Source of the DNA: Proteromonas lacertae | Taxonomy: Eukaryota | Assembly (NCBI GenBank): GCA_002245135.1 | Contig: NGBS01000628.1 | Coordinates: forward strand, 1 to 62,255 | Direction: 5' to 3' | Length of the DNA: 62,255 nt | Position numbers and translations under genes: made by a program | Notes under the pieces: generated by a model | Told to the model about the DNA's origin: nothing | The model's input: only the letters and a program-made list of their open reading frames with translations | The model's database searches: none | In this document: in pieces, positions 953 through 35,706 of the stretch | How positions within the stretch are numbered: position 1 is the stretch's first letter | Layout of the letters: each line of letters begins with the position of its first letter

Positions 953-973
953 AAGAATAAAGAAATATAAAAA

Positions 974-6554: not shown

Positions 6555-6582
6555 TTATTTCTTAATAAAATATAATTATTAC

Positions 6583-9635: not shown

Positions 9636-9717
9636 AATATAAACAAAATATTAATATTATTATAATAAATTATATAAATATTTTTTTACTTTATACTGGT
9701 TCACTTTTATCTCCTGG

Positions 9718-10090: not shown

Positions 10091-10320
10091 TTAATAGTGT
10101 CTTAATGGTTGGTGCATCTTTAACTGTTTCTCTCTAAGGTAGTAGTATTGCTTATAAAGATCGTCTAAATATTTTCTATATTGATCGATTTGTCTTGATA
10201 TCTGATCATTTTCATACGGATTTGCTCTTGGTAAGTTTGATATAGGTGGTGGTGGTGCATTGTTAATATATTGAGTAAGATTTTGTTTCCAGAATAGATT
10301 GATAATATTTAAAGTCACAA

Positions 10321-13300
10321 GTCTTAATTCTAAACTCTCTGTTTTTCATAAACATACATCTTTGCTTTTAATCCACAGAAACGAGTTATTGTAATTTATA
10401 TATCTATCTTCTAAATATTTGCAATGTATATTCATTTGAAGGAAGTTCTATATCTACTTCCAATATATAACCTCTACTATCTTTATCTTTCCATTGAATT
10501 ATATCTTGAGGATCAGTTGATTTCTTTAATATTTCATATGGTTTCATTTTGATTATTACATTATTATACAATTGTTTTGAATCTTCTTCACTTTCCCATT
10601 GAAAGTCTTTATATCAATGATTGGAGGATCCATATAATGATTATGTGCTTCTGCTTTTCTCTATGTATGAAGTAGTATTTATCTTGATCTGCTATAATTT
10701 CTATAGGAACTTTACACTTCTTCAAGAATATAGACCAAGCTAAACCAGGTAGGATACATGCCAACAAGGATCAAGAGTAAATGTTTGAAATACTACATTC
10801 CTAAAGTGTTCAAATACACTTGTAAGTGAAAGAACATCCATAGCTAAGTAGAATAGATTATAATCCATAAGATTTTTGCAATCCAATAGTTGCCATAATG
10901 CTACACAAGAATGATAATCACGGTCACTTATTGTGTAATCTTGTTTTAATTGAGATAAGAAACTCTCTTTTGGAGGTAGTTCATGAGTTTGATAATACTT
11001 CTCTATACTATCCACAAATATATGTGGAGTACTCTTCACATAATCATACACTGGTTTGAATAACTTCTTATATTGTATATTTTTAGGATCTTCTTCTGCT
11101 TCTACTTTTAATGATTGTACTAAACTATCCAATGATGAAGGCATAAACTGACATGAATCAATAAAATGCAGCTTCTTAAATTTAATCATTAAGAACTTAT
11201 TATCTGTTTATAACAACACTGAAAGTTTTGAATGATATCTCTTTTGTTTAGGTTTTGTTGTTTTTGAAGTTGTATCATTAATATGAATCTGTTGATGATC
11301 TATATATAGATTACCAATGTTTGATTCTACATCAACATCTTCAGCTGTTGTAGGTGATAAGTAATGTTCTCTATAGTTTAATATATAATGTAATTCATTG
11401 AATGCTTCTTTATCATTCAGATTATATTCATCTGTTATTATTTCAATAGTATTAAGAGAAGGTAATATTATAATATCCTCATCTTCTTGTGTTGATTTAT
11501 CATCATCAATTATTTGTATTTTTGATCTATGATTAATATGTATAGGTTGGTTATCATCATCATCATATTCTTGTTTCTTTTCTTCTTCTATATCTCTATT
11601 ATAATTAGATACTCTTTCTTCAATAGTAGGTATTGGTAGTGATTATGATGATGTTGTTTCTGACATTAGTTCATTATCAACACTATATTCATCAACTAAT
11701 GAAACATCTATCTTGTTATCTGCATTAAACTGAACTTCCATCTCTTTATCTAATCTTGCTAGACCTCTTATAATAAAATTGTTATCATAATTTTTTGAAT
11801 TATGAGCAAGACAGGGTATAGGTAAATGCTGAATACTGCAGTGCCAATTGCAATTTGAACATATGGTAGCTATATATCTACCTGTAAAATGGTCATGATG
11901 TAATGTCCTTCTTATATTTCTATTAGATTCAAATAATGTGTCTCCGCAATAAACACATTTAATTTGTTTATCATGATTAGGAATATATGTACTCATATCA
12001 ATTGGTTTCTTTTTTTCATCTTTGTATTCATCCCATTTCTAAATTTTCAGGATTATCAATAATACCAAGTTTACCAAAGAATGTTTCCTCACTTATTATA
12101 TCAGGATTACGAGAAGAGATGTGGATACACCAGCTACTTAACACATGTTTCTTGAAAGCACCTTTAGCTCCAGTTATTGGAATGTTTTCATCAATAGGAA
12201 TTTGATATACTTCTGTATCCCAATATAGGACTACAGGAACTAGTTGCATATACTTGAAATTATGAAATTTAAGGAAAGTATCTTGAGGAGGAAATTGTCT
12301 AAGTATACCTCTCGATATTTGACAATCTTGCTTCTCATGTAACAACAATGATTGATCTAGTATAATAATTATGTAATTTCTTTCCTGGTGGTGCTAAAAA
12401 TGCTTCTACCTTAATGATAGTCATATAATGACATTCCCATAATAGTATATTAACATGAGGATAATGATTAGTTTTAGGATAATGTGGTTCTTTTTTATTT
12501 ATAGTAAATATATTGACTGTAATATGATTTAATTCTTCAAACTCTTCGATTCTATCATGATCAAGTATAGCACCGACAGGAAATATTAGACAACTATAAT
12601 CTAAGGCATCCACAAAGCGTTTATACTTGTAAGATCTATTACGTTTTTTTTTGAAATCCATATTATGCAACCCAGCTGCTACTGAGTATAAAAAACATAT
12701 ATTCAAAGCATAAAACCTAATAGATTGTACTATTCTAGTGGTACATATAACCTGGTAGATTTATTTGATAATACTATTGTAATCAGTTGCAGATCCAGCT
12801 GTCATTGTAGATTTCATCATAACCATCTCAACCATTATAATTCTTCTAAACTTTAGTACTGATCTTTCTGTATTGAAAATAGCACCTAAATCTCTTACCA
12901 TTACTTTATTTAAAGTAATAGTCATTGAACCCATTTCTGAACTTGTAATAATCTCAGGATTTGTTTCAAATGTTTTATAATTAGATACATAATTAGCATT
13001 TGTATCATCAACATTAGAAACTATATATCCCACTCTGAATCTGAATTGAACTTTAATAAAACTAAACCCATTATCTTTCATATAGTTCCTAATCTCCTTC
13101 ATTGCTCTTCCATTATCATCTGAAATACTATTAAATACTCTTTGAGGTTGTTTTCCTTGTTCAGGATCAATTTTAATTTCAACTGTTTTTTCAAACATTT
13201 TGGATGAATGTGACTTTTCTCGGATAGTATAAAGACGAACATCCATTGGCATTTGCTTTAATACATCAGGATTATTATCAACTACATCCATTGCTATCAT

Positions 13301-13697
13301 CTCTTCTGTCGAATTTTTATAATTGGATTGAGTAAAGGTGAAATAGGTGGAGTATCAGGTAATTCTTCATCAGCTACTTCTTGCATATACTGTACCATAT
13401 TAGTTCTTCTTATTTTTGATGGTGGAGGCGAATTAAGATTAATAGATGAACCAATCCATTATTTTGAACTACTCCTAATGGAGGCTCTTGCAATGATGGT
13501 GGAACCATACCATATATCCCTCCTCCACTGCCACCTATAACAGGATATTGCATTAGAGGTTGATAATATTGCTGTGGATATGGTAGATATGGAGGATACT
13601 GAGGATAACCTTGTGACTGAGGAACAAAATATGGATTCATATACTGATTGAAATAGTTTTGAGGTAAGTTTGGAACAACATTACCAAGGATAGACAA
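10321..13697 (-). pseudogene. Protein-primed family B DNA polymerase with inserted endonuclease VII-like domain; fragmented, polymerase domain mostly deleted
   Basis: CFLYSVAAGL, IEEFEELN, VVLYWDTE (ExoI), CVYCG..HHDHFTGRY...CSNCN (EndoVII), AHNSKNYDNNFI (ExoII), FIDSCQFMPSSLDSLV, LPPKESF, YLAMDVLSL..VFEHFR, LDP, GYILEVDIELP. Confidence 0.88.
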
Positions 13698-13916
13698 TAG
13701 TATTTAGCTAAACTAACTAATGAAATACTTACTAGTGTCGTAATATTGTTTGTTGTGGATTTATTATAAATTTTTAAGAGAATTTCTTAATTTTAACAGA
13801 TTCGTATAAATCTTATAATAACTTCATAAACTCTTATTCTTTTTTTATTATAAAATCAAATTAAATCAAACTATTTATAATTATACTAAATATCAAAAAA
13901 TAAATTTCAATTAATG

Positions 13917-14050
13917 ATATATTCTCGATCAGCTTGATATGCAGCATAGACTCATCGAGTCTATAAGGAAGATCTCAAAAATATATTTGCTGATGTTGCT
14001 TATAAACTCGATGAGTTTATGCTACATATATAGCTTATCAAGATGATATA
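13917..14050. repeat. Long imperfect inverted repeat whose arms are each self-palindromic
   Basis: TATGCAGCATAGACTCATCGAGTCTATAAG (13938-13967) matches the reverse complement of 13999-14028 at 27/30 positions; pairing extends outward. Confidence 0.85.
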
Positions 14051-14280
14051 TTTATTACATCAAATGATATTCTTACTATATAAATTGTTTATGCTAAAAA
14101 TGTAATACTACAATTAATTTCTAAAATAATTTATATGATAGATAATATTTTTGTATCATTCTTCATTAACAAAAGAAATAATAATACTAAAAATATATCC
14201 AATAACTCTTATTTCATCCTTAATTGAAATTTAGTTGTCATTATTATATTAAAGAAAATACAGTTTAATATTTACTCAAA

Positions 14281-15262: not shown

Positions 15263-16411
15263 ATGTATTATAATTTCATTTATATTATATATTTTGTTAT
15301 ATTAATTGCTTTATTTGAATATGTTTATAAAAATTATGACTATTCATACATCAGATCATTTAATAACAAATTACATTATAAATTAAAATGTATATCTAAT
15401 TCGAATGAAATTATTCATCTAAATTATATATATAAAAGACTGAGTAAATTATTGTTCAATAATAAAGGAAAAGTGTATATATCTTATCTTAATAAATCAA
15501 CTTTATTTGAGAGGAACATTAATAATATTCTTCCTGAATATATGCCGAAAATTAAAGTCTTTAAATTTAAGAATGTCATAGTCAGCAACAGCGGCTTAGT
15601 ATATTCTAAAAATTATATTCTAAGATTAGGAAGAGGATGTATGTGTAATGATCTTACTATAAAAAAACAAAATAAATTATTTGCATATAAAAAAGTACTA
15701 GTTATATCTCAATATTGGAATTATGGTACTTTTCATGCCCTTATTGAATGCCTTACAAAAATATCCTTCTATTTAAAAGAAATTAAAAATAAAAACATAT
15801 ATCTTCATATAGGATTTAATAAAGCAATACTTAATTATCTAAAATTATTAGATATCAGTATTAGTGTTATATTGACAGGATATATTTATGTAAAACATTG
15901 TTTAATAATTGAAAATAGTAAATGTGGCATGTCATCAGGTGTTGCTCCTTTATTATATTTAAATAAAGAGCTAATCAAAAGAAATAAATATTATAATAAT
16001 ATACTTGACAGAATTGTCATAATAAAGCGAACAAATGTTAGATCCATTGTGAACTTTAACAGTCTTATAATATTTATAATGTATTATTTTGATAATTATA
16101 TCATAAATGTGTTTATGCCAAATACATCATTTAATAATACTCTGTTAATGTTTGGAAGAGCAAAATACATTTTTGCACCTCATGGTACTGGGTTAAGTAA
16201 TATTATATTATGTAATTCTAAAACAGAAATTGTTGAATTTTTACCACATACTAACACAAATTTTTGTTATACAAGCTTAGCTTATTCTTTAGGCAATATA
16301 TATCATGGTATATATCAGAACTATGATGGATATAAATTTACCATTAATATTTCATCTTTGTGTTATTATATAAAATATCATATATATTATAATAAAAATA
16401 AAACTTGCTAA
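15263..16411 (+). CDS. Glycosyltransferase family 61 (DUF563), type II membrane anchor
   Basis: N-terminal TM, YGTFHALIECL, KR..VRSIVN, IFAPHGTGLSNIIL...IVEF. Confidence 0.85.
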   Translation: MYYNFIYIIYFVILIALFEYVYKNYDYSYIRSFNNKLHYKLKCISNSNEIIHLNYIYKRLSKLLFNNKGKVYISYLNKSTLFERNINNILPEYMPKIKVFKFKNVIVSNSGLVYSKNYILRLGRGCMCNDLTIKKQNKLFAYKKVLVISQYWNYGTFHALIECLTKISFYLKEIKNKNIYLHIGFNKAILNYLKLLDISISVILTGYIYVKHCLIIENSKCGMSSGVAPLLYLNKELIKRNKYYNNILDRIVIIKRTNVRSIVNFNSLIIFIMYYFDNYIINVFMPNTSFNNTLLMFGRAKYIFAPHGTGLSNIILCNSKTEIVEFLPHTNTNFCYTSLAYSLGNIYHGIYQNYDGYKFTINISSLCYYIKYHIYYNKNKTC

Positions 16412-16774
16412 TTGAAATAATTCTTATAAATGACAATATTAGTTCTTACTATTTACAGTCTTTATGACAATAGCTTACACTTTTAGGAAGAGATATTTTT
16501 TAATATGTTTCAGCATATAAAGAAAGGCTTATATATCTTAATGGTGCATCTCCCCATCTATATAAAAATTGACCATAACTTAAATCTATCAAATTTTCAA
16601 ATTTACAGTTGTATTAAGAATTGACTCAGAATCTAATCTCATAAAGATATCAATATTATATAATGAAGGATGTAAAAATATATCTCTAAAAAAGAATCGA
16701 CACATATGTTGATAGTTCCATTTTCCTCTTTTTATATATATTGAATTGTGTATCGAATCATTAAACATGTAAGG

Positions 16775-18500
16775 TATATAGTATATAAATGGGACCCTGG
16801 GACATTGTCACAGAGTTCTAACGAATTTTCTAGGGGTCCGTCCCTTTCTAGATTCAGAGTTGACCTTTACGGGAGCTTCATCGATGCAATCGATGAAGCT
16901 CCCTTAAAAGTCAACTCTGAATCTAGAAGGGGACGGACTCCTAGAACACTCGTTAGAACTCTGTCACATTGTACCATAGTCCCATTTACGTAAGGTTCCT
17001 ACGGGATTCCTCCCAACAGGGTCTACTTCTCAACGGGGTCTACTTTTCCTACGGGGACTCCTCTAAGCTATTTCTATACCTATTTATGAGACGATCTACT
17101 ACGGGTACTCCTGGAAGCTATCTAGAAGTGTTGGTTACCTCGAGGTGATGATTCTAATCATGCTCTTGACTCTCCTTGCTACGCTGGTGACCTTGTAAGG
17201 GCTTTTAATTGAACCGTGGAAACCAATCGTGGAACCGGGAGTTTACAATTGGTAACAAGTTACCAAATGGTAACTCCGGGAGGTTCTAGCTAGTTGTGGA
17301 TCCAAGGTAAGTTCATCATCCTTATAACTCTCCTAGGTAAGTTCATCCAAGACCTTCCCGAGAAGAACAGCCGTGTTGGCAAGGAAGGGAATCTCCTACG
17401 ATGGGAGATTCCCTGACGCAGTCATGCACGGCTGGACGTATCTGGGAAGGTCTTGATGGTTCTTCTATTAATCAGTCAATTTACAAGGCCATTGAAAAGC
17501 TAGGGTAATCAACAGGGCAATCTTGGATCTCAATGGACAACTCAATGAAGAACTGGGACTTTACAATTGTTAACAAGTATACAATGATGACTTCGGGAGG
17601 CTTCAATCAATTCTATAATTCTCAAGGACCTTGAAAAGAGATAGCAGCAATCTCAATAGTCTTCTGAAGGTAAGTCTCATCATCCTTGTTAATTGTTTAG
17701 GTAAACTAATTCAATTCTGAAGAGTATGGAGGATAACATCCTTAAGGATCAGCAAGCAGTCAGTTCCAAACTACCCTACCACTCCATCACGATCATGAAT
17801 GGTACTTTACGGAAGAAGCCTTTAGCTCTTTACCAATCACTGGGTAATCTGTTACTAAACCTTTACATTGTTCAGAACCAGGCTAGGTGCTTATACATTG
17901 TACCTAAACCCAATAAGATGATGTTTTTTCGATCATCCCAATAAAGCAAAGGTACCATCAACCACAACGATAAGCAGGAGATCTAGCTATCTTAAAGGCC
18001 AATGCATCCTCCATTATAAGTAAGTTTCATCAGCTAGGATGTCATAGTCTAGAACCTCATTCACGGAAACAACATTGTTACCTACAAGGAGCAGGAGATC
18101 AGCTGGGTAAACTCTTAAGAATCGATTGTTGAATCCATCAAGGTCATCATGAAGAAATAATCTTGCCTGGTGTTGTATTCTCTGAAGCTTCATATCGATA
18201 AAGGCAAGGACCATTGATACTAGCACTACGTATAAGGATAGTAAGTAAATGTTCTTAATACCGGACACATAGTGATCTATAGAAGGAGGCATCGGAAAAG
18301 TTCAACTATCTCGGCAGTAAGCAATTTCTGAACACCTCCCGTGAATGCAATACTTTAAGAACACTACCGATAAGAGGTTGCTGTAAAGGAACCAGAGGGT
18401 AAAGGATTATCTCAAGCACCAGGGTTGTAAGAGGCAGTACTCTCAGTTGATAAGAAGAGCTATAGCAATGATCCGATCATTGCTAGATAAGGGAGGTGTC
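16775..18500. mobile_element. End of the TIR-element family with a 203-bp terminal hairpin and subterminal repeats
   Basis: Terminus TATATAGTATATAAATGGGA; 16980-17450 matches the reverse complement of ~52570-53125; palindrome at 16786-16988. Confidence 0.85.
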
Positions 18501-19083
18501 CTCGGAGAGTTCCATTCTACAGAGGCATTGCTTGGCTACTAACGTTTTAGGAGGTGTGGTACAACTAAATATGGGAACAACAGTAAAACCTAATGAACAC
18601 TTTGTTGTTTCCAATCCAAGACAAAGTGTAGATGAAGGTAATATGCATATCTCTTTAGTAACTCAATTACCAACTAATGTTCAACGATATATACCAGAAC
18701 AGCCTGTTGGATACAATTATAATTCCATTTATAATTGATTTTAATTTCAATTTACTCTTCCTATCATGTTTTCTATGTTTTTTGAAATGAACATGTTTAC
18801 TGATGTTAAACATGATATTACAGAATTAACAAATGATGAACTTGAGAATATAATACAATATCTAACACCAGAAGAACAAAAAGAAATAAGATAGTATTGG
18901 AGAGAAGCCAATAATATTGAAAAAGATGATATTAAAGAAGAAGATGAATTTGATTCTGATTTTGATGAAGATGCATGACAACCTGTAGAACAAAAGAAAA
19001 AATAATATCATCTATAATATCAATAACGGCTATATTTCTAATAGTATTGTTTCTCTATTTTTTATATTGTTTTTATATATTTT

Positions 19084-22000
19084 ATGGGCGTTAAACGAAA
19101 GCATAAGCAGCAATCATCACCAAAAGAAGAAGCAATTGATTTTGAGAATCCCTCTGTGTATCATAATGCACTTAAGAGAAAATTGAAAAAGATCATCTAT
19201 AACAAAGTGAAAGATAACAAAAAAATAAAACTAGACCTTAGTCATCTTGCCAATCAAACAGCTATTGTTGACAAAGGCAACGGTACATATGGATTAGACA
19301 TCTATGATCCTAAATCCAGTTTCAATAAATTTTATGATACTATTGGAGATGAAGATGATATTTTTCATGTAATACAACATACGATTGGTTGAAATTTGGT
19401 TTGAAGTTCTGCTTATGTACTATGACATTAGGTTCTATTTCGCAAGTGTTTGATATACTATTTCCTGATAGTACTGTTGGTGCAATATTAATGTATTTAG
19501 TAAATGCAGGAATAGGATATAGTGGTGTTATGCAATGGATATTTGGTTTATCTCCAGCATGGGTTAATGCAGCATCTTTTGTGTCAATGTTAACTCCTAA
19601 TTTTGTCAGCTTGGTATATAATCGTTGGAAACAAGTTCCTCCAATGGATATGTCACAATGGATTCATTCTAAGTTAGATAGTATAATGGGTTTCTTTACT
19701 ACATCACTAAGTAATATATACAATTGGTTCAGAGGTATATTTGGTGCTACTCCTTCAACAACAAATTCGACGAGTGCGCCGGCCACTTCAAATATTCAAG
19801 CATCGAATGTTACAACTGCTCCCAGTTATGATAATACAACTTCAATACCTACAACTGGCGCCAGTTATAATAATACAACTTCAATACCTGCAACTGGTGC
19901 AGGTTATAATAATCAAAGTTCAAATGTTGCAAACTACTCCGGAATGATGGCAGGTGCTGCTGCCGCCACGGCGGCAACAGCCCAGTCATCATTCCAAAAT
20001 AACACACAACCAATACAACAAAGATATAATGTAGATGCTATTATGGAAAAATTACAATCATTTTTGATTAATCAATATGATTATGATTCAGTTAAGCAAA
20101 TGGTTATGAATAATACAAAACAAGATTTAGAAAATGTATGTAAAAATGTAGGATTGCCATTAGATATTATATCAAAGTATTCCAGCTATGGAGGAACAAT
20201 AGATCAATTAGTAGATTACTTACATTATTTCAAATATCAATGTGGTCGTAATGCTCCAGAAGCACGATCAGATGTGTGTAATTTAATTAATGGTATGGGT
20301 AGTGAATATCATTTATGGCCTAAAGTAAATTATGGTATCTTTGGTATGTCTTTAGATGGATATCCAAAGACAGGTTCAGGTAGAAGAAAACATGTTCATT
20401 TCAAGCATAAGAAACATCACAGAAGAAATAAACTAAAATTAGAGAGTATCCCACGGAGGCATCTCTTGGCTACTAAGAAATTAGGTGGTATTATACCATT
20501 AAGAGTGGGTCAAAGTGTTGGTCCTAATGAGCATGTCATTATTACTAATCCAAGACAACAAATGTATGATGCTGCTAGTGCTGCTTATAATGGAACATCA
20601 CAATTACAGCCAAGTCAAATACCAGAATATATTCAACCATATATACCAAAAGAAACTGTAGGATATGATTATAATTGGAATTATGATAAATTATTTAGTC
20701 CAGGTTTGAATAGACAAGCTCGAAAAGAAGTTCAATATGCATTAACTAATAATTATGCTTCTTTGTTGCCTAACAATTATCATATTAATTTTTATGATAT
20801 GCTAGATCGTGAACATAAAAAAGGACATTTAAGAGGAACATTCCCATTAGCAACATTAAATACATCTAATCCAAGAAGCTATCTTTTGAACTGGCCTGAA
20901 TATGTTACAGAAGCAGATGTTCAGGCATATGATAATGGAATGAATAGAGTTACAGATCCTTTGTTACAAAAATTTCCTAAATTACAAAATTATAAATCAT
21001 TGCAAGAGATTATAGAAAAGAATCCTCAATTAGCAGCCTATAAAAATTATAGACAAGATTGGTTGACCTCAACTTGGGATAAATTAACAGGTAATGATAA
21101 AGATGCAATAGAATATTATAACAAACTATTATTACAGCAGGAGTATTTGCAAAATGAATTAGTTGATGGAGTAAGTAAGATCAATCAATATTCAGATCCA
21201 TATAATTTTGATCCGAATCGAGCTGAAAAAGTAAAAGAATATATTGCATTGAATAATCAAAAGGCACAAAGATATATGGATGATCAAGAGATATTAGAAA
21301 GATCAAAATTTTATAGATGGGCATTAGATCCAAAAAATCAAGAACTGGTGAATAGTGCTATAGATATAGATAAAGAACCTCATACATGGATTAATGAAGA
21401 TAAATATAGAGAACTGAATGAAATAGCATCACAGAATAGTAGAGATTTCATTAACTTTGATTATAACAGAGAGAAGTTAGGTCACTCACTTCCTCAAGAG
21501 TGGGTGAATGCAGATAATAGACAAAAATATGAAATAGCTATTGGTTTAGTGAAAACTGCTTGTAATTCATGGGCACAATTTGAAAATTCACAGTTTCAAA
21601 AAGCACTTGATTCATTACGTGAATCTGATTTTATGGGTTTTGCTGGTAATTTGTTCCTGTGTGTAGAGAATGTATTTAGGATATTTCCACAAATATACTA
21701 TACAATGAAGTCATATTTGGTTGGTGGAGTTACTCCTCAAATGTTTGAAGTAGATCATGCAATGAAATATGTTCGTGCAATAGTAATGACATGTTTAGCT
21801 TATTGGTTATGGAAAAAATCTAAACTACCAACATCAGGGTTCTTGTATGTAATGTGGTACTTCATTTTCGACTACTATGAAATAATTCGTATGCTGTCAG
21901 GTGGTAGACTGACTTGTATTATAGGAACAGTATTCAGTGCATTGACTGCTTGTTTTGGTTTGCTAGATGCAGGTGGTTTATTAAACTGGTTAAAACCAAC

Positions 22001-22721
22001 ACCATATCAACACAAGAATGCAATCAAAATGGATAACTACGTGAAACGTTCACAACAAACAATTCCAAGTTCACTCACTAATTTTGGTAGAGCAGTGAGT
22101 AATTTAGATCAAGCAAAACAACTCAGTGAAGCTATGAGTTACTTTGGAATAGGTAATGGAAATAATAAAAAAGTAAAGAAATTAATTTCACGTAGGAAAG
22201 TTTTGTATAACAGTATCACTTCAGATGCCTTATCGAACTTTGATATAGAGTTAATTGTGAAAAATGAGTTCAATAATTTCCATGGAAAGTTCATGGGAGT
22301 GTTCTGCTGGGACGAGCTTGTACTTCCTATACCCAAAAAGAAGAATCAATGGGGAATCATAATCAATACACTCACCACACAAGCTAGCCCTGATTCTATA
22401 GGTCATTGGGTGGCCTTAGTAGTTGACAATATCAAAAAGCAATTCCTGTACTATGATTCATTTGGTGAAGATCCTCAACACTTGGAAGAATTTAAAAAGA
22501 ATTTGAAAAAATTAAAGAAGTATCATAATGAAAAGTATGAACTTAAAATCAATGGAGTACAGAATCAAAATTCAAATACTGCTAACTGTGGTTTTTTTGC
22601 TATTAATTTTTTGAAAAATATTTTAAGAGATCAGTGTAGTTTCAAAAAGGCTACTGACTATAATACAATAGTGGGTGAAGCAAAAATTAGGTTAATGAAA
22701 AAACAATTTGGATTAATATAA
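19084..22721 (+). CDS. Large membrane polyprotein with C-terminal adenain-like cysteine protease (ORFs 19084..19392 and 19389..22721, offset by an internal deletion)
   Basis: Catalytic GHWVAL / YYDSFG / QNQNSNTANCGFF motifs; hydrophobic segments; T/N-rich repeats. Copies at 7640 and 36762-37183 show the segment missing after GDEDDI. Confidence 0.85.
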
Positions 22722-22750
22722 TATATAAAATTATTACTTAATTATTTTTT

Positions 22751-23158
22751 TTATGTGTGGTGAAATATTGTATGAGTTTCAATATATTCTATCATCTCTA
22801 AATCCATATGAGTACATTTGAAGAATATTGGCATCTTACCATTAAAACATCTTTGTGGCATTCTAATGATTACTTTTTTCATTGTTGGTGTGTATGTAAC
22901 TTTCGGATAATCTCTATTTCCTAAGTCACAAGGACCTACAAACACTAATATCAAACGTTGACTAATGATCATGTTAATCATTTTGTGTGTTAACTCAAAA
23001 TACCATTGATATATAGGTTTTCGATAATAAAAAAATATAAGGAATTGTAGGCTATACAAATCTAAGTATCTGTCAGGGCCACTTAAATGATATTTCTTTG
23101 TTACCTTGGATTCAAGTTCTGGTAATTTATATTCAATCTGTGGTGGTAGTGTAATCAT
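22751..23158 (-). CDS. Hypothetical Polinton protein
   Basis: ATG-initiated 135 aa ORF between the protease and integrase genes. Confidence 0.45.
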   Translation of the reverse strand: MITLPPQIEYKLPELESKVTKKYHLSGPDRYLDLYSLQFLIFFYYRKPIYQWYFELTHKMINMIISQRLILVFVGPCDLGNRDYPKVTYTPTMKKVIIRMPQRCFNGKMPIFFKCTHMDLEMIEYIETHTIFHHT

Positions 23159-23224
23159 ATATAAAAAATAGAATATACTATATGTATATGTATAATAAAA
23201 TATTTAAAAAAAAGAAATTAAAAA

Positions 23225-23315
23225 GAAAATGGGATTACTAATAGTCTGTGCTAGGAATCGAACCACTAATGCCAGCTGCATGACTCTTTTTTCCTTGCAC
23301 AGTCTATCAGATCCC
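23225..23315 (-). ncRNA. Candidate Pol III small RNA 1 (~90 nt, VA-RNA-like)
   Basis: Minus strand starts GGGAT and ends ATCCC then a T-run; long terminal stem; perfect B-box GGTTCGATTCC at +52..+62. Confidence 0.5.
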
Positions 23316-23323
23316 AATTAAAT

Positions 23324-23518
23324 AAAAAAAGGGCATTTAGATATACAGTGCCAGGATGATTCAAGCCGAATTTCAATGGCGCAATATTAAACAACACACA
23401 TCCAAGTAGAAATTATTATTAAACTTCCATAAATTCCTTGTGAAATTAATTTAATAAATAAATAAATAATTATAAATTAGAAACGCAGCCCTCATCGTAG
23501 CTAGTCTATCCAATGCCC
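23324..23518 (-). ncRNA. Candidate Pol III small RNA 2 (~190 nt, VA-RNA-like)
   Basis: Minus strand starts GGGCATT and ends AATGCCC-TTTTTTT; terminal stem of about 14 bp; no internal T4; shares GATAGACT near its 5' end with RNA 1. Confidence 0.45.
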
Positions 23519-23568
23519 AATAATAAAAAACAACATATACAATATATAGCATAATAAAAATTTATTCG

Positions 23569-24091
23569 TTACAATATTGATTTGTCTCCCTTCTTTCTCT
23601 TGGGTCTCTCCAGTATTTTTCTAAACCATGTGGTTGGTGCATCATCTTTTCTCACTAACTGCAACTCATAGTGTTTGAATCGAATTAATGAAAAACCTTG
23701 AATGTCATTCCCATTGATATCACCTAAATTGTATGAATATCGATTTTTCTTGATTATCTTATATACATTGTCTGACCAGTATATGTTCTTATCCATTTTA
23801 CGTCTTCTCTCTTTGAATCTCACCAAATCACCTACTTCGAAATTTTGACCAGTATGGTCCAATTTTTCATAATTCTTTAAGTTGTAGTTAATTGATTTTT
23901 GTAATATTTGTTTTTGTAATTCTGGACTATGGAATACCTCATTTGGTGTATATCCTTTAATTCCTGGTAATGGCTTGTTGTTATAGTCATCTATCACTTC
24001 CTGTATTATACTATCGAGTTTTAATTTATAATTCATATCTGGTATAATATGCTTATCATTGTGATCAAACATTAGACTTTTCAGTTCATTG
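23569..24091 (-). pseudogene. Polinton integrase, C-terminal half (5' truncated)
   Basis: VIDDYNNKP..IKGYTPNEV...FEVGDLVRF...YWSDNVYKI. Confidence 0.8.
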
Positions 24092-24092
24092 T

Positions 24093-26340
24093 TTGAATGG
24101 TAAAGGTAATTTATTAAAAATAGGCCATTACAGATTAGAATTTGATGTGAGTAATAAAACCAAACTGTTGATAGAAAAGTTGGGATTGAATATCTGTGAA
24201 AATACAGTAGTAGGTGATGAAATGATTCGAGGTATTAGTGGAGGTGAAAAGAAAAGAGTTACATTAGGTGAGGCATTAGCTGGTCCAGCCAGAGTATTGT
24301 TATTGGATAAAGTTAGTACTGGTTTAGATAGTGCAGTTACGTATGACATATGTAAATTCCTAAATCAATGGGTAAAGATATTTGAAGGAATCTTAGTATG
24401 TCACTTATTACAGCCAGATCCAGAAGTAATAAAACTGTTTGATAATGTGATTATACTGAGTGAAGGTGAAATAATTTATGGTGGATCATCAAATGAAGAG
24501 TGTATTATGAAGTATTTCAATTCAATTGGTTATAATATTCCAAATAATAAAGATATTGGTTCATTTTTATCAGATATGGGAAAAGAAGAATCAAGATTAT
24601 CATTTCGAAAAGATGAAAGTGTGAATGTTGATACAAAGTCAATGGTTGAGTTATATTATAAGAGTGAAAGTTTTGAAAAGATTGAAAGAGAAGTAAATAA
24701 AGAAACAATTCCATCCAAAGAAATTCACAATAATTATAATGATTTAAGGTTTCATCAAAAACATACAATGTCTTATATTCAACAGTTATGTTATTTGTTT
24801 AATTATCACTGTAGGAATATATACAAGAATCCTGGTGTAATTGTAGGAAGAATAGTTCAACAAATGATAGCTGGTGTATTACTTGGTTGGATCTTCTTTG
24901 GACTTGATAAGAATGACTTTATATCTAAAACAGGAGGGATATTTATGGTATTAGGAACGCTTCTCAATGCTACTTTAGGTGTAATATATCCATCATTTTT
25001 TAGTAAACCACCGTTATATAAACAATTGAAACAAGGATATTATAGTAGTAGTTCTTATATTGTTACTTCAGTAATTAGTCGTTATTTATTTCAATTTCTT
25101 GAAACTATAGTATATGGGACAATAATCTATTCAATGATGGGATTTTCATTTGATAATAATGGTGAATATTATTTCATACATATTTTGATATTATTTCTTG
25201 GTTATATTACTTTTTATTCTTTTTATGAAATATTTGTTTATCTATGTGATACAATGGGTGGATTAAGTGCAATTTTGTCAGTAGCCAATTTTATTATGAA
25301 TGTGTTTAACGGTTTTAGTATAACCAGAAAGAGTATTCCAATTTGGTTAATTGAATTCTATTATTTCAGTCCACTTGCTCATATAATAAAAGCTTTACTT
25401 ATAAATGAATTTACAAGTAATAAGTATACAAAAGAAGAATCTGAGATATATCTTGGAGCATTTGATTTTCCAACAGAGAGAAGTGAAATATGGTATTCAT
25501 TAATAATCATGTTATGTGAACATATCTTCTTTGTAATATGTCAAGTAATAGTAGTTCATTACTTTCAATATGATCCATTCTATCCAAGTAAAACAGTAGA
25601 CAAAGATTCAGTGAAAAAGATAGAAAAATTGAAGAAACATATGAATGAAAAGACAACTAGTTCACTTGATAATCCAATAAGGAATGTAGATTTTACATTT
25701 GAACATGTCAAATACAGTGTAAGAGTAAAAGATCCAATAACAAAAAGAAAAGTAGATAAAGTGTTATTGAATGATGTAAGTGGATTTGTAAGAGCTCACA
25801 GTATGACTGCTTTAATGGGAGCAAGTGGTGCAGGTAAAACAACATTATTGGATGTATTAGCCAATAGAAAAACACAAGGAAAAATAGAAGGTAAATTCTT
25901 ATTGAATGGTAAAGAATATAAACCCAATGATTTGTGTATGTTAAGTGGATATGTAGAACAACAAGATACATTACCTGAAACTGAGACAGTCAAAGATGCA
26001 TTGATGTTTAATGCAAGATTAAGATATCCAGGAAATCCTAAAGATAGTGTGATAGTGAAGTATGTAGATGAAACAATCGAATTATTAGGATTAAGTGAAT
26101 ATAAGAATATGATGATAGGAACAAAAGAGAATGGTTTGCCAATGGGTATAAGAAAATTGGTAATGATTGGAATAGAATTAGCAGCTAATCCCTCAATATT
26201 ATTCTTAGATGAACCAACTACTGGGTTAGATAGTTCATCAGCTTTATTAGTATGTAAGATGTTGAATAAGATAGGTGAATGTGGAAGAAGTATAATTTGT
26301 ACAATCCATCAACCATCTTATGTAATATTTGAATTGTTAA
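24093..26340 (+). pseudogene. ABCG/PDR-type ABC transporter, internal fragment (end of NBD1, TMD1, NBD2)
   Basis: RGISGGEKKRVT, LLLDKVSTGLDS (Walker B E>K), ALMGASGAGKTTLLDVLA, GYVEQQD, LFLDEPTTGLDS, CTIHQPS; lacks the N-terminus and TMD2. Confidence 0.9.
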
Positions 26341-27198
26341 TGTGTGTACTATTGTGCAATATAGCTTATAAAGAAGATTTGGAGAAAAGCATTGTATATA
26401 TTAATTATATATATTTTTATATAGTATGACAGAATGGAAGATATGATAGAACTCACAAGTATGTATATCATCCATTTTGGAGACTCTGATTTATCTAAAT
26501 GCGAAAAAGAAGAAGACAAGAATGGAAGAGGTGATATAGTGTACAGAAGTACTATAGAAGATGTGTTTTCTAATAGAGTTTCTGCAGTATCATTGTTTGA
26601 AAACCTAGCTGAAAATAGTATCTACAAAAAAGAAAGTGCACTACTTCAACTACTCATAAATTCAAAAAGAAGAGAACAATTCAAAGAAAGAAATCAAACA
26701 AAAAAAAATGGAAGATGTGAGCACAGAGGAAGATGATGATGATGAGTACTGTCCGCTTCCATTATTAATCTCTGATCCTAATTGGTTCAAATGATTGATT
26801 GTGTTTGTGTAGGGTGTTGTGTTTATGATATACATAATTAATTAGCATTATATTGATAAGTAATATACGTCTTATAAGAAATTTCAATAATTGAAAAAAT
26901 AGATGCGTTTCGAGATTTGACTTGAACTCCATTTTTTTTTTGTTTTGTTTTTTTATTACATAGGATGGTCACTATATGGTGTCATATCACACCATGTGTT
27001 GACCATCCTATTGAGATTGTTTTTATTGAATTATTTTTTGAAATTATATGTCATTCACTTTCTATAATTTGAACTAACAACATAAATAGATTCATCATAA
27101 GATGAGGATTCAAATGGAATAATTATTTTTGTTTAAATTCAAACAGAAAAGCGAAAAAATAATGTAAGCTTGAATTATGGTTTGATAATGAAACGGAC

Positions 27199-27612: not shown

Positions 27613-28479
27613 ATGAACTTCAACATTGTAATTGTAGAATTAGTTAGTATATTTATATGCATATTAATGTTTATTTTTAATAAATCTAAACCAAATGAAC
27701 ATATAAATATAGCTAATAAAGTGCTATCCATTTTTCCTCCTACAATTATAAATGAACAATCCTTCTATTTTGTCAAAACTAATTATAGAAACATGTCATT
27801 TCATCAGTGTATAAGGAGTGATGATTATGTATCAAATTATATTAGCAAACATGGAAGGTGGGAAGAATGTCAAATAATTTTCGACATATGGAATTCAAGC
27901 AGCAAAAATGGTATATTTTTAGATATAGGGGCAAATATTGGTTCTTGTTCATTTCCTTTTGCTGAAGCAGGAGTAAAAGTCATTGCTTTTGAACCTTTAC
28001 CTAATAATTTGTTTCTATTTACTATTACAACTAATAGTAATTCAAAATTAAAAAAATTTATCACCATATATCCTTATGCATTAGGAAATGTAGATAAGAA
28101 ACAAATAATATACATAAAGAAAAACAACTGGGGAGCATCATCCTTATATAGGAATTATAAAGATTATAATTATACTATACATGTGAAGAAACTAGATGAC
28201 TTTATTGCTTTAATACCTAATAGAATATCTATTATTAAAATAGATGTGGAGGGAGGAGAATATGATTTATTAAAAGGAAGTATAAATTTCTTTAAGAACC
28301 ATAAAGCTGAATATTTGTATATTGAATCATCATGTGGAAATAAAAATAAAAATAATATGTATGGCATTGAAAAGTTATACTCTTTGCTTAATAAGTTAGG
28401 ATATGATATTGTAAAAAAAATAGAATGTGAAAAAATACGATTGGATAATGTAATTGCAAAAGCTAAATTTAAAACTTGA
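27613..28479 (+). CDS. FkbM-family SAM methyltransferase, membrane anchored
   Basis: FLDIGANIGS, VIAFEPLP, IYPYALG, IIKIDVEGGE; N-terminal TM. Confidence 0.9.
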   Translation: MNFNIVIVELVSIFICILMFIFNKSKPNEHINIANKVLSIFPPTIINEQSFYFVKTNYRNMSFHQCIRSDDYVSNYISKHGRWEECQIIFDIWNSSSKNGIFLDIGANIGSCSFPFAEAGVKVIAFEPLPNNLFLFTITTNSNSKLKKFITIYPYALGNVDKKQIIYIKKNNWGASSLYRNYKDYNYTIHVKKLDDFIALIPNRISIIKIDVEGGEYDLLKGSINFFKNHKAEYLYIESSCGNKNKNNMYGIEKLYSLLNKLGYDIVKKIECEKIRLDNVIAKAKFKT

Positions 28480-28516
28480 CTTATACTATTTTATTTCTTA
28501 CAACACTATAGGAATT

Positions 28517-29263
28517 TCAACTTTCTCTTCCATAATAATACATATCTGATCTAAAAGAGAATTTAGATTCAAAGAATTTATAAACAGATTTTAAATAATT
28601 ATTCAAATAATCTAATGATGCATCGATTGAATTTGCTTTACACATACCACCTTTATATCTTGTGTGTCTAACATAGCCATATGTCGAATTAATTATTCTC
28701 ACTTTTATAGGCATTAATACTTCTTTGTATATATGAACATCAAGAATAGAGTATTTATATAAATTACCTACAACATATTTTTCATATCCTTTTTTTACAG
28801 TGCAACAATTTTTGTTGCTAATTATTGATTCATGTGTTTTTGAATAATAAGAGAATAACTTTGATTTTAGCAAATACATATCACTACTATGATTATCAAC
28901 ACTTTTAAATAATGACAAATAGTTATTTGTTTTTAGCGGTACTATAATCTCATCAATATCATGATATATAATATATTTTGTGTTATACATATATCTATAT
29001 AGAATATCATTGATTTTAGGTACTTGACCAGTTGAATGAACAAATTGAATTTCTTTATTAAAACAAAATGGTATTAATTCTATATATTTGCTTTTCAGAT
29101 AATAGAATAAGATTGATTTAATATAATTAGTAGATGATGTTACATGTATAATTATATGTTCAACTCCATAAATTTTTGCAATTTCAATAACATCAATTAC
29201 TTGCTTATAGTTGATGATTTCATGAAAATTTACTATTGATAAAATAATATTGTACACTTTCAT
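28517..29263 (-). CDS. Glycosyltransferase family 92 (DUF23)-like; N-terminus probably extends to ~29600 with frameshifts
   Basis: YGVEHIIIH, GQVPKINDILYR, YIIYHDIDEIIVP, DVH. Confidence 0.7.
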   Translation of the reverse strand: MKVYNIILSIVNFHEIINYKQVIDVIEIAKIYGVEHIIIHVTSSTNYIKSILFYYLKSKYIELIPFCFNKEIQFVHSTGQVPKINDILYRYMYNTKYIIYHDIDEIIVPLKTNNYLSLFKSVDNHSSDMYLLKSKLFSYYSKTHESIISNKNCCTVKKGYEKYVVGNLYKYSILDVHIYKEVLMPIKVRIINSTYGYVRHTRYKGGMCKANSIDASLDYLNNYLKSVYKFFESKFSFRSDMYYYGRES

Positions 29264-31977
29264 TGGTTTATAAATTAGTAATGGAATAATTTTGTTATTA
29301 ATTACAATTGCTTTAGGTGTTAAGTGTTAAGTTTTTTTGTTTATGTATATTATATAATTTTTTCACATTCATTATACAATTAAATCTATATTCTTCATAT
29401 ATTATGTTACATATATTTATATGATTCTTATATGGGTATGATACTCCTATTAAAATTATTTCTTTATTTTCTAACATATTTGAGGAATAAATATATAACT
29501 GGTTATTAATATTAGAATTGTGTATATAGTTGCATGTATAACTCTTTTCTAAATATATATATGTATTATTAATAAGATTTGATAATGAAAATATATATGT
29601 AATATGTTTCTGTATTCATTGTTAATTTCTGTTGCCTTTTATTTAAATACTTTAATTAATACAAAATTAGGACATAATAAGCAATTACTGATAAAATATG
29701 AAGTTTATAATTTTACTACATATAAATATTCATTCTCATACAAAAATATATCAATAGAAGCATACTATGTAAGAAATATATCTTTTAATATTTTTTACTA
29801 TATTAATGGGTATAATAATATTATGTTGTAGTGTAAAGCAAATTCCATTTATTTTTTATACAATTGTATTGAATGGTTGGCCATTTATTACATATCATTA
29901 TGATGTATTCAAATCTCTAAATAGATTTTTTCAATGGAATATTATTGAAGGATATGCAGTTGGAAGAGATAATCATAAATCTAAATACTACAATTCAACT
30001 CCATCAGAAATAAAAAATGTATATGATTATATTATGTCTAGGGCATTTCTAATGATAACACTTCAGAATATATTAATTATTTATTATATAATCATCCTGA
30101 GGGTGTAATATTACATAGATCACAGTATGGTAGATTTTGGAAAGATAAAATTGAAATGATTTCTGTGGTTCATAGAATCAAATATGCATGCATAATGATG
30201 GCTGTATATTCATATTATCGGTGAATTGAAGTAAGTGTATGAGGGCGTAGAACTGGATGATTGATTCTCTTGCTTTACCTTAAAGCTATCGGTAATTACT
30301 TGAATATCATTTTTGGGAATAGATGTTGGGGTTGGTAATGAAGCAGGAACTGATGTAGCTGTCACTGATGGATCAGATACAGAAGCTAGTTTAAGATCGT
30401 CAAGGATCTTATGAATGTAAGCGTCCTGACTCTGCCATACTACTGGGAAGATGATTTTACCGTCAATGTTCTATCAGTTCCAATCCTTAAGAAGTCTATT
30501 CAACTAGAAGTTGAACCTCAACCTTACTTCCTTCTGTAGAGATCTCCGATCCTTCCACGTCCACTTAAAGAAGTAATTAATTAATCTTTGTTTATTGTTT
30601 GTTGTCTTGGGAGATTGCTTAAATAACACTAAGAGTCCCATTAAGTGATCTCCTCAATGCAACAAGGCAATGAACAATTGCAAAGACACTTCAAAGGAAC
30701 GTCAAGGACAACAACGAGATAGAATAGAACAAGAGATTATCAGGTTTAAGTAATGCTAGTTAGTCCTCACAGGAGGATTCAACATTAGTAGATTAAGTAA
30801 GGTCAAGATCATCCATCTTAGGACTAATGATACAAGTAAGTACTTAACCTTCAAGGTTGGCTGGAGGAAGTCCATGTACTGCTTTATCTTCAAGGTAAGT
30901 AATCACGAACACTAGCTTTATCGGTGTATTGTCAGCTTTGAAGTCTCTTACCAGGTCCATGATCTCAGCATTGAAAGGAACATCATCATCATCATCAGCA
31001 ATCATCTCAGCCTTCAACTTCTTATACAAATATTTTTATAGGAATTTTAACAAAACCAGAATGCTTATATGAAAGGATGATATTGAGAAGAATATTATGA
31101 ATCGAAAAGGGAGAGTTACTTATATTTACATTTTATACCACATAAAAATAAAGATTGCATAAATCATAGAATTTCAGTAAATTTGTTACTATTTGAAGGA
31201 TTATCTATAATCCATTTTCCTCCTATAATTATAAATGAACAATCTTCCTATTAATTCTGGTATAATATAATGTTCTTCACCTTCTACATATATTTTCATT
31301 ACTTTAAAATCATTATGTGGTATATTTTCTAATATAAAATTTTATACATTCACTACTGGTAAAGTATAGTATATTCTGTTTCTGTTAAACCTGTTATATG
31401 ACATATAAAATTTTGACGAAGCAACATCATCTTTATCAATTGTCATAGTTTCAATTCTGGTGTAAGTACTAACAATTAAAGGACAATATACATAGAAATG
31501 TATGTAGTAAAATTCTATGAGAAGCCAAATGATTTTTTAGGATATTTATTAATTATTTATATATAAATAATAATATAATGCACGTAATTAAAGTGATCCA
31601 ATTGTCTATCTTATTAATATATAAAACAATATATTTATAATATTGTGAATTGAATATCCCATCACAAGTTATGATTTATGAATAGAAATTATGAAAACAA
31701 TATCATATAGTTTAGGTCATTTTAAAAACTGTAGTGATATTAGTTTTTGATGAAAATCATTAATCTACAATAAAGATTAATGTTTCATTGATCATTTAAA
31801 GGTTTTTACATGCGTTGGTAACCTCGTAAGAGCTTTTTTATATTATCAATGAAAATGAATAATAATTTATTGACATTTATTAATCATATAAATAATAATT
31901 CTAATAGTATTAGTTATTGATTTAAATATTAATTAAACCATATCAATTGAAATCAAATACTTGGTTTTAATTTAATT

Positions 31978-32832
31978 TTAGCACTTTTTTCCATGATTAT
32001 TATAAAATAAGCTTTCATTTTCAATTAACTCTTTCACTTTTTCATTATAATTTGGATCATAAAAACATTCATTTCTTATCTTCTTATTTGGAAAACTACA
32101 TTTTCTGTATCCATTTTTAAATAACAAATATTCCACATAATCATCTTTAGTCTTATTCTTACTATTAAATTCAACTACCCAATAATGAACTCTTATATTA
32201 AAATCAAACGTATCTAAAACCATATATTCAGCTCCTTCAACATCTAATGAAAAGAAATCAATATGAGTGATGCCTGTTGAATAGAAAATATCTTTTATAT
32301 ATGTGCATGTCACGTTTACTAATGGTTTTAAAGTGTTTTCATCTTTATTCCAAAATGGATTGTTTTCTTTTAATCCTCCCATAGCCCATACATCAAAAAA
32401 TTCCACAGTATTAGGAAAATACGGACAGACTGCAGTACAGAATATTTCTGATCTATTACTTCCTCTCTGCAATAGTTTTTTGCAATTTGATGGTAATCCT
32501 TCAATAAGTATACCTCTCCATCCTAGCTCCTTTTCAAAAAATAGTGTATTGCTAAATTTTCCATCCAAAGCTCCTATCTCAACAAATATTCCATTTGTGA
32601 CTATTACAGGCTTTGAAAAGTATAAATCAAAATATATTTCATCTTCTTTATATTGTGAATAAAAAGTTGTATTAATTTTATTATTTATTTGAATAGGGCA
32701 TTTCCAAAGATTATGATACAATATGCCATAATTTGTTAAATGTGACTGGATTTTATTAATAATTATATAGTGATGAATTGTATAAATAATGAAAAATAGA
32801 ATAACAAAATGAAAATATTTGAATAGTTGCAT
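31978..32832 (-). CDS. FkbM-family (Methyltransf_21) methyltransferase
   Basis: YSQYKED, FVEIGALDG..SNT.FFEKELGWRGILIEG, HIDFFSLDVEGAE; N-terminal TM. Confidence 0.9.
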   Translation of the reverse strand: MQLFKYFHFVILFFIIYTIHHYIIINKIQSHLTNYGILYHNLWKCPIQINNKINTTFYSQYKEDEIYFDLYFSKPVIVTNGIFVEIGALDGKFSNTLFFEKELGWRGILIEGLPSNCKKLLQRGSNRSEIFCTAVCPYFPNTVEFFDVWAMGGLKENNPFWNKDENTLKPLVNVTCTYIKDIFYSTGITHIDFFSLDVEGAEYMVLDTFDFNIRVHYWVVEFNSKNKTKDDYVEYLLFKNGYRKCSFPNKKIRNECFYDPNYNEKVKELIENESLFYNNHGKKC

Positions 32833-32866
32833 AAGATGATTTATATATTTGACATTTCTATTTGAA

Positions 32867-33660
32867 TTAATTGCATTTTACACCATAATTTGTTCTATAT
32901 TTTCTCTCAGTATCAACCAATTTTTTTACTTCATTATAATAATTATGATATTCATAACATTCATTATTATGATCTAATTGAATGTTACATCTAAAGTAAC
33001 CATTATCTTTTAGTAATTTTCTAACTTTCATGTTCTTTTGACGATTATAGTAAAATCAAAAGTTTCTATTACAGCAAGTTCACTTCCTTCAACATCAAGT
33101 GAAAATAAGTCTATATGTGTTATATGATATAGATGTAGAATATTTCCAATGTTTGAACACTTTGTAAGAATTCCAGCTTTTTTCTCCATACCAAACCATT
33201 TTTCTGGCAGTTCTCCTGTAATTCCTCCTACACCATCGCCTTGCTTGAATTCTACATAGTCAATATTTGGACAAATAGCTGTGCAGACTATCTCAGATCT
33301 TCTTCTCAAATATTGATTTTTATGTAATTCTAAGCAGCTTTTTAGACTTCCTTCTATCAAAATGCCAGACCAACCTAAATATTTTTCGAAATAGTATGTG
33401 TTACTAATTTTATATCCATCTAAAGCTCCAAGTTCTACAAATATTCCATTGAGTTTATTCTTAAAGAACTGATTATTATATACAAAGTCTTCTTTAAATT
33501 GACTCTTATATGAACTATTGTAATAACTATCTCTGGATTTGTATAAACAACTCCATATGTGAGGATGAATTATTGATTCATACCCACTTTTATGACTGTT
33601 ATTAAATGAAATAAAAATAAAATTTAAGAAAAGTATAATTAATATTATTTTTTCTATCAT
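32867..33660 (-). pseudogene. Tandem FkbM paralog with internal deletion/frameshift near 33045
   Basis: FVELGALDG, HIDLFSLDVEGSE; a C-terminus homologous to the neighbour (LLKDNGY..C...NECY...YGVKCN*) continues in other frames to 32867. Confidence 0.8.
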
Positions 33661-34056
33661 ATATATTTGTTCTGATCAAAAATTCTTTAGTTTATTATCT
33701 TGTGAAGACTGTTAATCAAGTTAATGACAATAACATTCTATCTACAAAAACTTTCAAAGATGTGTTTATATAGAAAAGATTAATCCTCTCAAAAAGATTA
33801 ATCCCCTTATAAATATTGTTAAGAAGTTATTATTAAAAGTTTCTCAAAACTTGTTCTTGGAATTTTAATGATCTTTCATGATTAACAATATATTTTCATT
33901 CATATGAATGTTTCTATTATAATAATTAATATATTGATTATTTTGTTATTTATACTTTTAAAATATTATTATTATTATAAAATATAAATTACAATTAACA
34001 ATATTAACAAAAGAATTAATACAGAAATTTATTTATACTATAGCTGTAAAACGAAC

Positions 34057-34932: not shown

Positions 34933-35706
34933 ACAGAAATAGTTTTGAAATTTTTATAGTATTTATTAATTATAAATATGTGGTTTACATAAATAATCTT
35001 AATATATCCATAAACTATATCATTTTTGCATATTTCCAAATATTCTTCCCCTTTATACCATATTTTGGGGAAATAAGATATAAAACTAACATAAACGACA
35101 TCTTCAACAAATACATAAAATGTTGAATCTGTATAGAATTTCATTAGATTTATAACATCTTCGATGATTTGATTATAATTTCTCTTTGATGATATTAATA
35201 AATATACTATTTTAGTATATTTCTTAATATGTGACATAACTAATTTTCTATTATTAGAAAAAATTGTTGCATTGAAATTTACCGATTGTGGATATTTTAC
35301 TACTTTAACATTCCTACCAAATGGATCATTTTTAGGTAAATCAATATATGTTTTACCTTTCATCCATCCTAAATAATTAGATACTTCAAAAGGTAGTTTT
35401 CCCTATAGTATGAATAATCATTTCTATACATTATAGTTGTTGATTAATGACCAATTCTTATAATTAAATGTTTGATGCCCATAAAAATTATCTTTAAATT
35501 TTACAGTCCTCTCATCTGTATATGAATAATGAGTAAATACTAAACCATTATCTTTAGTATTAAACAAATATTACACGGTAAGTAATTAAAATAGATTCTA
35601 ATAATATAATATTTGTTTAATAACTTACCGACAGCCTAGGCTATATTTTAGGTTTAAATGTAAAACCTATAATCTATAATCTTATAATTTTCTTATCATA
35701 TCACCA

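Follow-up and report, generated by a model that had tools for sequence, protein, structure and literature searches.

A handful of vertebrate viruses are known to encode small structured RNAs transcribed by Pol III (PMC4378190, PMC11194592; here and below, papers are cited for their accessible parts). Adenoviruses, which are of Polinton origin (PMC6943099), contain two adjacent genes of this type, VA RNAI and VA RNAII, whose transcripts of about 160 nt start with GGG, form a long terminal stem, end at a terminator of four or more T residues and carry an A-box and an internal B-box at about +52 (PMC7589676, PMC4378190). The defining features of VA RNA include the GGGU-ACCC central tetranucleotide pair besides a three-domain fold, and Exportin-5 binds to the terminal stem, which Dicer cleaves (PMC7589676). 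In the pre-miRNA cluster of bovine leukaemia virus (BLV), Pol III initiation and termination define the two ends of each hairpin, the promoters are degenerate, and a B-box located just past the terminator is functional; gaps of up to ~365 bp between A- and B-box are reported to be tolerated (PMC12498455). Vault RNAs are products of host genes with A- and B-boxes, which form clustered paralogues showing little conservation beyond these promoter boxes (PMC7058938). EBER1 and EBER2 of EBV and BocaSR of bocavirus are further structured Pol III RNAs of DNA viruses, and EBER2 and BocaSR show that a layout of this kind can serve viral DNA replication or chromatin targeting in the nucleus instead of counter-defence (PMC4378190, PMC11194592). 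For Polintons, no description of Pol III small RNAs was found in the literature searched, which covered few subscription journals: the accessible part of PMC8502044 reports tRNA genes in some related viruses and no RNAs like those considered here, that of PMC6943099 does not mention VA RNA, and those of bioRxiv 10.1101/2024.03.23.586382 and PMC12487709 contain nothing decisive on such RNAs.

In this study we analyse a locus that may encode a pair of such RNAs, designated U1 and U2. It is located in a stretch of 62,255 nucleotides, termed the window; the host is a eukaryote of 29% GC with ciliary Ig-domain genes, likely a protist. A preceding sequence-only reading had described two minus-strand units, each starting with GGG and ending with CCC followed by a T run, and both the sequences and the coordinates of these units were confirmed. 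The locus and its neighbourhood comprise the following features:

19422..22721, plus strand: uninterrupted ORF of 1099 codons with a C-terminal adenain/Ulp1-like cysteine protease domain
22751..23158, minus strand: ORF135, an orphan ORF of 135 codons, part of the U1/U2 cassette
23206..23229, minus strand: predicted terminator cluster of U2 with T4, T5, T3 and T8 runs
23231..23315, minus strand: U2, a predicted RNA of 85 nt forming a single long imperfect hairpin with 32 pairs and 45% GC
23254..23264, minus strand: perfect B-box GGTTCGATTCC at +52..+62 of U2
23301..23308, minus strand: 8-mer GATAGACT in the 5' arm of U2, at +8
23324..23330, minus strand: predicted Pol III terminator of U1, a T7 run in the sequence
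23331..23518, minus strand: U1, a predicted RNA of 188 nt with an imperfect outer stem of ~39 bp around an AT-rich multibranch core
23341..23345, minus strand: TATAT at -30 of U2, within the 3' arm of U1
23503..23510, minus strand: 8-mer GATAGACT in the 5' arm of U1, at +9
23543..23548, minus strand: TATATA at -30 of U1, a weak feature, such tracts being frequent in the element
23569..24105, minus strand: C-terminal part of a Polinton-type integrase, 56-59% identical to P0006/P0007

The units lie in a truncated, Polinton-like relic of 5.5 kb. The location in a Polinton that had been proposed is likely and has to be narrowed to this relic, which has integrase and protease features and from which a protein-primed PolB, capsid proteins, a packaging ATPase and terminal repeats are absent. 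The integrase was recognized via P0007, which aligns to P0014 (E 6e-29), the latter matching rve (E 4.2e-9), and the protease domain matches PF02902 (E 2.7e-7) and PF00770 (E 2.9e-4). A more decayed relative, copy A, is located at about 1-14000 and shows ~60% protein identity; it gives a weak protein-primed PolB match (PF03175) below the cut-off (E 2.2e-4), and no capsid protein or packaging ATPase was identified in copy A either, the predicted model of its capsid candidate being unusable (pLDDT 33). On the basis of the integrase, the protease and the sub-threshold PolB match, the element is likely a Polinton. The integrase gene breaks off at a truncated host ABC-G gene, whose homology starts at about 24024-24063 and whose nearest relatives are 67-68% identical, one of them 99%. 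This transporter gene (24024-26429) is truncated at both ends, its 5' break coinciding with that of the integrase.

Together with ORF135, U1 and U2 form a cassette of ~800 bp (about 22727-23525) between the integrase and protease genes. U1 begins 50 nt past the integrase stop and ORF135 lies 72 nt downstream of the units, all on the same strand, and the end of the protease ORF is convergent toward ORF135. In copy A, the protease and integrase ends match those of the relic and are about 60-85 nt apart, so that the entire ~800 bp are missing between the aligned ends, in line with the claim that copy A lacks the region; no hairpin is present behind the copy A integrase. Since U1, U2 and ORF135 are all absent from copy A, they are interpreted as an accessory cassette of one family. 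For ORF135 we found no homologue, no Pfam or NCBIfam family and no PDB match; Atlas matches do not exceed 0.84, weak F-box clusters appearing at 0.80-0.81, and the structural model (pLDDT 42) gave no fold match. The close protein relatives of the element are Logan records. Among viral contigs, related loci were confirmed in 0 of 11, 0 of 24 and 0 of 33 cases with the integrase, the protease alignment and the integrase alignment as queries, respectively, and prokaryotic genomes (0 of 130 candidates) and the phage collection yielded none; 143 metagenome candidates contained one distant protease locus (31% identity, 1307 bp). A strict DNA pattern of the units had no match in viral contigs, and the 99 loci retrieved there with a relaxed pattern were mostly tRNA-like or tmRNA-like T-loops of phages, none of the distinct contexts listed resembling the units by eye.

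The U1/U2 locus is a real feature of the window. Both units stand out as GC islands from intergenic flanks of 0-14% GC, U2 with 45% and the arms of U1 with 48%. They are separated by a spacer of 15 nt, composed of the T7 run of U1 and 8 further nt, and the end of U2 is followed by A-T4-C-T5 and further T runs. Both fold with the first base paired to the last, as expected from the complementary 5' and 3' ends noticed before. The description of U1 as free of T4 runs holds, whereas 'very AT-rich' applies to its core of 105 nt alone, which has 19% GC versus 48% in the arms.

In this layout the locus resembles several of the systems introduced above. Like VA RNAI and VA RNAII, U1 and U2 are two adjacent genes of predicted Pol III type in an adenovirus-related dsDNA element, with a GGG start, a long terminal stem and a T4+ terminator, and U2 shares the internal B-box at about +52 (PMC7589676, PMC4378190). 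They differ in length and in lacking the A-box and the GGGU-ACCC pair, in U2 the B-box lies on the 3' strand of a single hairpin rather than in a three-domain fold, and the host is likely a protist. To our knowledge, targets of the PKR type are not to be expected in such a host. With the BLV cluster the units share hairpin ends coinciding with (here predicted) Pol III start and stop sites, degenerate promoters and, as proposed below for U1, a B-box past the terminator; however, the BLV hairpins are shorter and keep scoring A-boxes, whereas U1 and U2 have longer arms, the B-box of U2 is internal and U1 contains the AT-rich core (PMC12498455). EBER1/2 and BocaSR, being RNAs of vertebrate viruses, show no sequence or Rfam similarity to U1 and U2. 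The units are VA-, vault- or BLV-RNA-like in layout and are not members of the VA RNA family. Rfam searches gave no match of U1 or U2 to VA RNA, neither at the gathering score nor at E up to 10; the only matches were sub-threshold ones to miRNA hairpins, such as mir-1542 with 22.9 bits versus a cut-off of 70, and a search of window positions 1-25000 gave nothing at E up to 1. The VA-RNA label of the sequence-only reading consequently fails as a statement of membership: besides the missing Rfam match and A-box, neither tetranucleotide of GGGU-ACCC is present and U2 is a single hairpin. Membership in the vault RNAs was rejected owing to the lack of an Rfam match and of an A-box. The proposal that Rfam and tRNA searches be used to exclude known classes could be followed up with a clear outcome, as no Rfam match appeared at E<=10 and ARAGORN predicted no tRNA at default settings or with -ps80. 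A tRNA or D-armless tRNA was also rejected, no cloverleaf with a paired T-stem having been found; the relaxed mitochondrial modes of ARAGORN gave 11-18 calls in 550 nt, which we regard as noise. A possible similarity between the SRP Alu domain and U1 in its 5' arm is without Rfam support, and an intron in the AT-rich core of U1 would yield a frame of 24 codons only, as judged by eye.

The similarity to vault RNAs leads to an alternative in which U1 and U2 belong to an undescribed, vault-RNA-like class of host genes transcribed by Pol III, either captured along with ORF135 or landed at this site, and useless to the element. The layout fits vault RNAs, which have an internal B-box, paralogues with little conservation apart from the arms and a central domain that differs in length (PMC7058938), and the B-box of U2 lies in the 3' arm, 23 nt short of the unit end. 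The absence of the cassette from copy A and the mosaic nature of the element, which adjoins a truncated host gene, also suit a host origin. Yet vault RNAs have both promoter boxes, and U1 and U2 have no A-box and no Rfam match even with E values up to 10. The cassette also fits cleanly between two genes of the element, both with ends that align with those in copy A, and no second copy occurs in the host part of the window. We consider this origin unlikely.

The predicted RNAs are unusually stable for their composition. The folding energy is -49.8 kcal/mol for U1 (z -3.94) and -35.0 kcal/mol for U2 (z -5.46), and in neither case was any of 200 shuffled sequences equally stable. In the ensemble, the outer stems of both units are well defined and the first internal arm of U1 is poorly so. 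Both strands of the window were scanned for closed units, defined as running from a purine after a pyrimidine to the first T4 with paired ends, a design that presupposed neither GGG/CCC ends nor a B-box and postdates the sight of the units. Among 324 candidates, U2 ranked first (-32.2) and U1 second (-25.7), followed by a unit with -19.9; U2 exceeded the best unit in all 25 shuffled windows, and U1 was tied by the best unit in 2 of 25. In a sliding scan with 90 nt, 22 strand-specific rows corresponding to about a dozen loci were more stable than U2. A hairpin by itself is therefore unremarkable in this window, and it is the combination of features that stands out.

The folding is biased toward the minus strand. 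For U1, the energies are -48.6 on the minus versus -30.5 on the plus strand, the largest gap among 17 hairpin loci compared; for U2 they are -33.3 versus -28.9, a gap of 4.4 kcal/mol that is unremarkable. The outer stems of both units contain nine G-U pairs on the minus strand, and A-C occurs in none of the five symmetric mismatches, the register having been chosen on the minus strand and one 2x3 loop in U1 left unscored. U2 carries an A6 tract, which would be an internal terminator on the plus strand, so that only the minus strand is free of one. This bias bears on the possibility that the units are features of the DNA from which no RNA is made: MITE-like GGG...CCC inverted repeats or palindromes in decay, in which a box bound by TFIIIC might act on chromatin. 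Palindromes and inverted-repeat elements are plentiful in the window, and U2 is flanked by ATT on both sides; but the flanks of U1 do not match, only one strand allows the mismatches between the arms to form G-U pairs (9 vs 0), and the top four palindromes of the window show little strand asymmetry (differences of 0.1-4.4 kcal/mol). A second copy of U1 or U2, as expected for a SINE or MITE, was not found anywhere in the 62 kb, host part included. Features of this kind are distinctly improbable as an explanation.

For U1, the absence of T4 alongside ten T3 runs has a probability of 0.007 in dinucleotide and 0.038 in mononucleotide shuffles, and T4 is also absent from 60 of 994 T-matched windows on the minus strand and from 97 of 1002 on the plus strand (6-10%). 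The avoidance is suggestive only, because three of the ten T3 runs are located in a single (ATTT)n repeat.

The strongest promoter element is the B-box claimed at +52..+62 of U2, and GGTTCGATTCC was indeed found there. On either strand of the window, GGTTCRANNCC is matched only here; the motif occurred once in 5 of 30 block shuffles (mean 0.17 per window). The box scores 18.9 bits with the position weight matrix, the next best site of the window reaching 12.6 (A- and B-box matrices from PMC12498455). No scoring A-box is present near the 5' ends, the best values being -0.8 bits for U1 and -6.7 bits for U2, so what had been called a non-canonical A-box is rather an absent one; the best A-box-like site of U2 is at +63, downstream of the B-box. 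Likewise, the weak B-box attributed to U1 dissolves into the background: the site at +152 has ~0 bits, and 467 sites of the window score the same or higher. With respect to the features of type 2 or mixed Pol III promoters (B-box, purine start, first T4+ at the 3' end and none internally), U2 shows all and U1 all save a B-box of its own. TATAT begins exactly at -30 in both units (local frequency 1.6% per position). The TATA/T-rich tract ahead of U1 is similar to the one preceding ORF135 (70% over 44 nt), and similar tracts occur in other intergenic regions of the element; it is consequently not Pol III-specific and constitutes weak evidence. The B-box of U2 is 255 nt from +1 and 67 nt from the end of U1.

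The resemblance of these upstream tracts and the missing A-box fit an alternative in which the hairpins are cis-acting parts of Pol II transcripts and the B-box is incidental. They would then mark the 3' end of the integrase mRNA or affect its stability, or else form a structured leader for ORF135. Both neighbours are on the same strand, as this would require, and the G-U strand bias is equally expected. Against such cis-acting hairpins speak the stems that end exactly at the first T run in the two top-ranked closed units, the perfect B-box with its expectation of 0.17 per window, and the copy A integrase, which is not followed by a hairpin. In view of these points, we regard a cis-acting function as quite improbable.

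U1 and U2 are probably paralogues. A direct repeat of 28 nt with 75% identity spans the upstream flanks and the 5' ends of both units, and the common 8-mer near +8 that had been pointed out was recovered at both sites: GATAGACT occurs only twice in the window, with a position-anchored p of 0.0017. Local alignments of the arms gave p = 0.036 and 0.025, and in a register set by hand, 18 of 24 positions are paired in both units, with 14 identical, 1 one-sided and 3 two-sided changes. The anchored tests of the 3' arms (p = 0.40 and 0.13) and the global alignment with fixed ends (p = 0.32) did not support homology, and MAFFT left the 3' arms unaligned; overall, the indications of homology between the units are modest. 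The shared 8-mer also weighs on whether the whole arrangement arose by chance, with GC-richer spacers of an AT-rich element folding and containing a B-box by accident. The locus is single, no homologue was found, and several tests were framed after the sequence had been seen, which leaves room for coincidence; nevertheless, two adjoining units on the same strand lead the scan of 324 candidates, the top one with the sole B-box of the window, and an anchored 8-mer is common to both. A chance origin appears most improbable.

The reading that accounts best for these data is that U1 and U2 represent a tandem pair of Pol III panhandle RNA genes, for which we see a reasonable though by no means overwhelming probability. 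It is favoured by two GC islands with stems that close exactly from the GGG start to the first T run, by the sole perfect B-box being located in the top-ranked unit, and by the minus-strand folding bias, and the position between integrase and protease genes and the absence from copy A argue for an accessory cassette. The proposal of tandem, stem-closed Pol III genes is hence upheld with regard to layout, strand bias, B-box, terminators and context, more strongly for U2 than for U1: U2 is likely to be a Pol III RNA gene, and for U1 the balance tips slightly in favour of such a gene. In the proposed mechanism, TFIIIC would bind the B-box in U2 and place TFIIIB on the TATA tract at -30. U1, having no B-box of its own, might use that of U2, 67 nt past its terminator, in the manner of the BLV pre-miRNA genes. 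With initiation at the G and termination in the T run, Pol III would produce RNAs of ~90 nt and ~192 nt, each closed by a long terminal stem and carrying a short U tail. To the benefit of the element, these RNAs might occupy the host machinery for dsRNA export and dicing or serve as its input, which is the least supported step of the model; by analogy with VA RNA, a role as decoy or Dicer substrate against host RNA defence is conceivable and rather doubtful. The four terminal 22-mers of the units have no trans target in the window, the best off-site duplex having -18.9 kcal/mol. Taken as a whole, the model in which an accessory cassette of a likely Polinton contains tandemly duplicated Pol III RNA genes whose products would serve as dsRNA decoys or Dicer substrates has about an even chance of being correct. 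A bolder version, in which protist Polintons make their own Pol III panhandle RNAs to blunt RNA silencing, with one B-box driving two tandem genes and the 3' arm of U1 doubling as TATA element of U2, is unlikely on present evidence.

If U1 and U2 are expressed, Polintons would hold non-coding accessory genes that have been overlooked by protein-centred annotation, and the VA-RNA strategy, if the proposed role is true, would also exist in the lineage ancestral to adenoviruses and in hosts without an interferon system. Expression would also allow a test of whether this virus lineage has long used VA-like RNAs and invented them repeatedly, and of what these RNAs do in hosts relying on RNAi or on unknown dsRNA sensors. 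The signature, consisting of a GC island, paired ends, the first T4 as end and a B-box, can be scanned for across Polinton collections.

Several further structures were observed in the window. In copy A, an intergenic GC island with repeated palindromic ACAACT...AGTTGT units is located between convergent ORFs (2968-3095) and can fold on either strand (-44.5 and -46.0 over 171 nt); it may be an array of operators or a further structured RNA. A strand-symmetric imperfect palindrome with two similar short palindromic sites (13909-14056), close to the copy A end, looks like a pair of DNA recognition sites. An Endonuclease VII-like insertion occurs in Polinton PolB, and the broken polymerase region of copy A contains a match of this type (11646-12038; PF02945, E 0.0036, below the cut-off). 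Positions 44400-53165 and 16774-18560 belong to an element of 8.8 kb with ~41% GC and terminal inverted repeats of ~120 bp, which has orphan ORFs without Pfam match and strand-biased hairpins at 51831-51920 and 52236-52325; a fragment of it with a near-perfect palindrome of 203 nt (16786-16988) adjoins the Polinton relic. An inverted repeat of 1088 bp with 97.5% identity (40186-41254 and 46127-47214) encodes a hAT dimerisation domain (PF05699, E 1e-7). The regions 36752-37240, 41715-42017 and 18487-18735 hold scattered pieces of the small ORF 19084-19392, 89-92% identical, and a second piece of the interior of the protease ORF, indicating that the element was fragmented recently. Finally, an intron-poor cluster of glycosyltransferase-61 and FkbM-type methyltransferase genes, the products of which have N-terminal membrane anchors, extends over 15263-16411 and 27613-36522.
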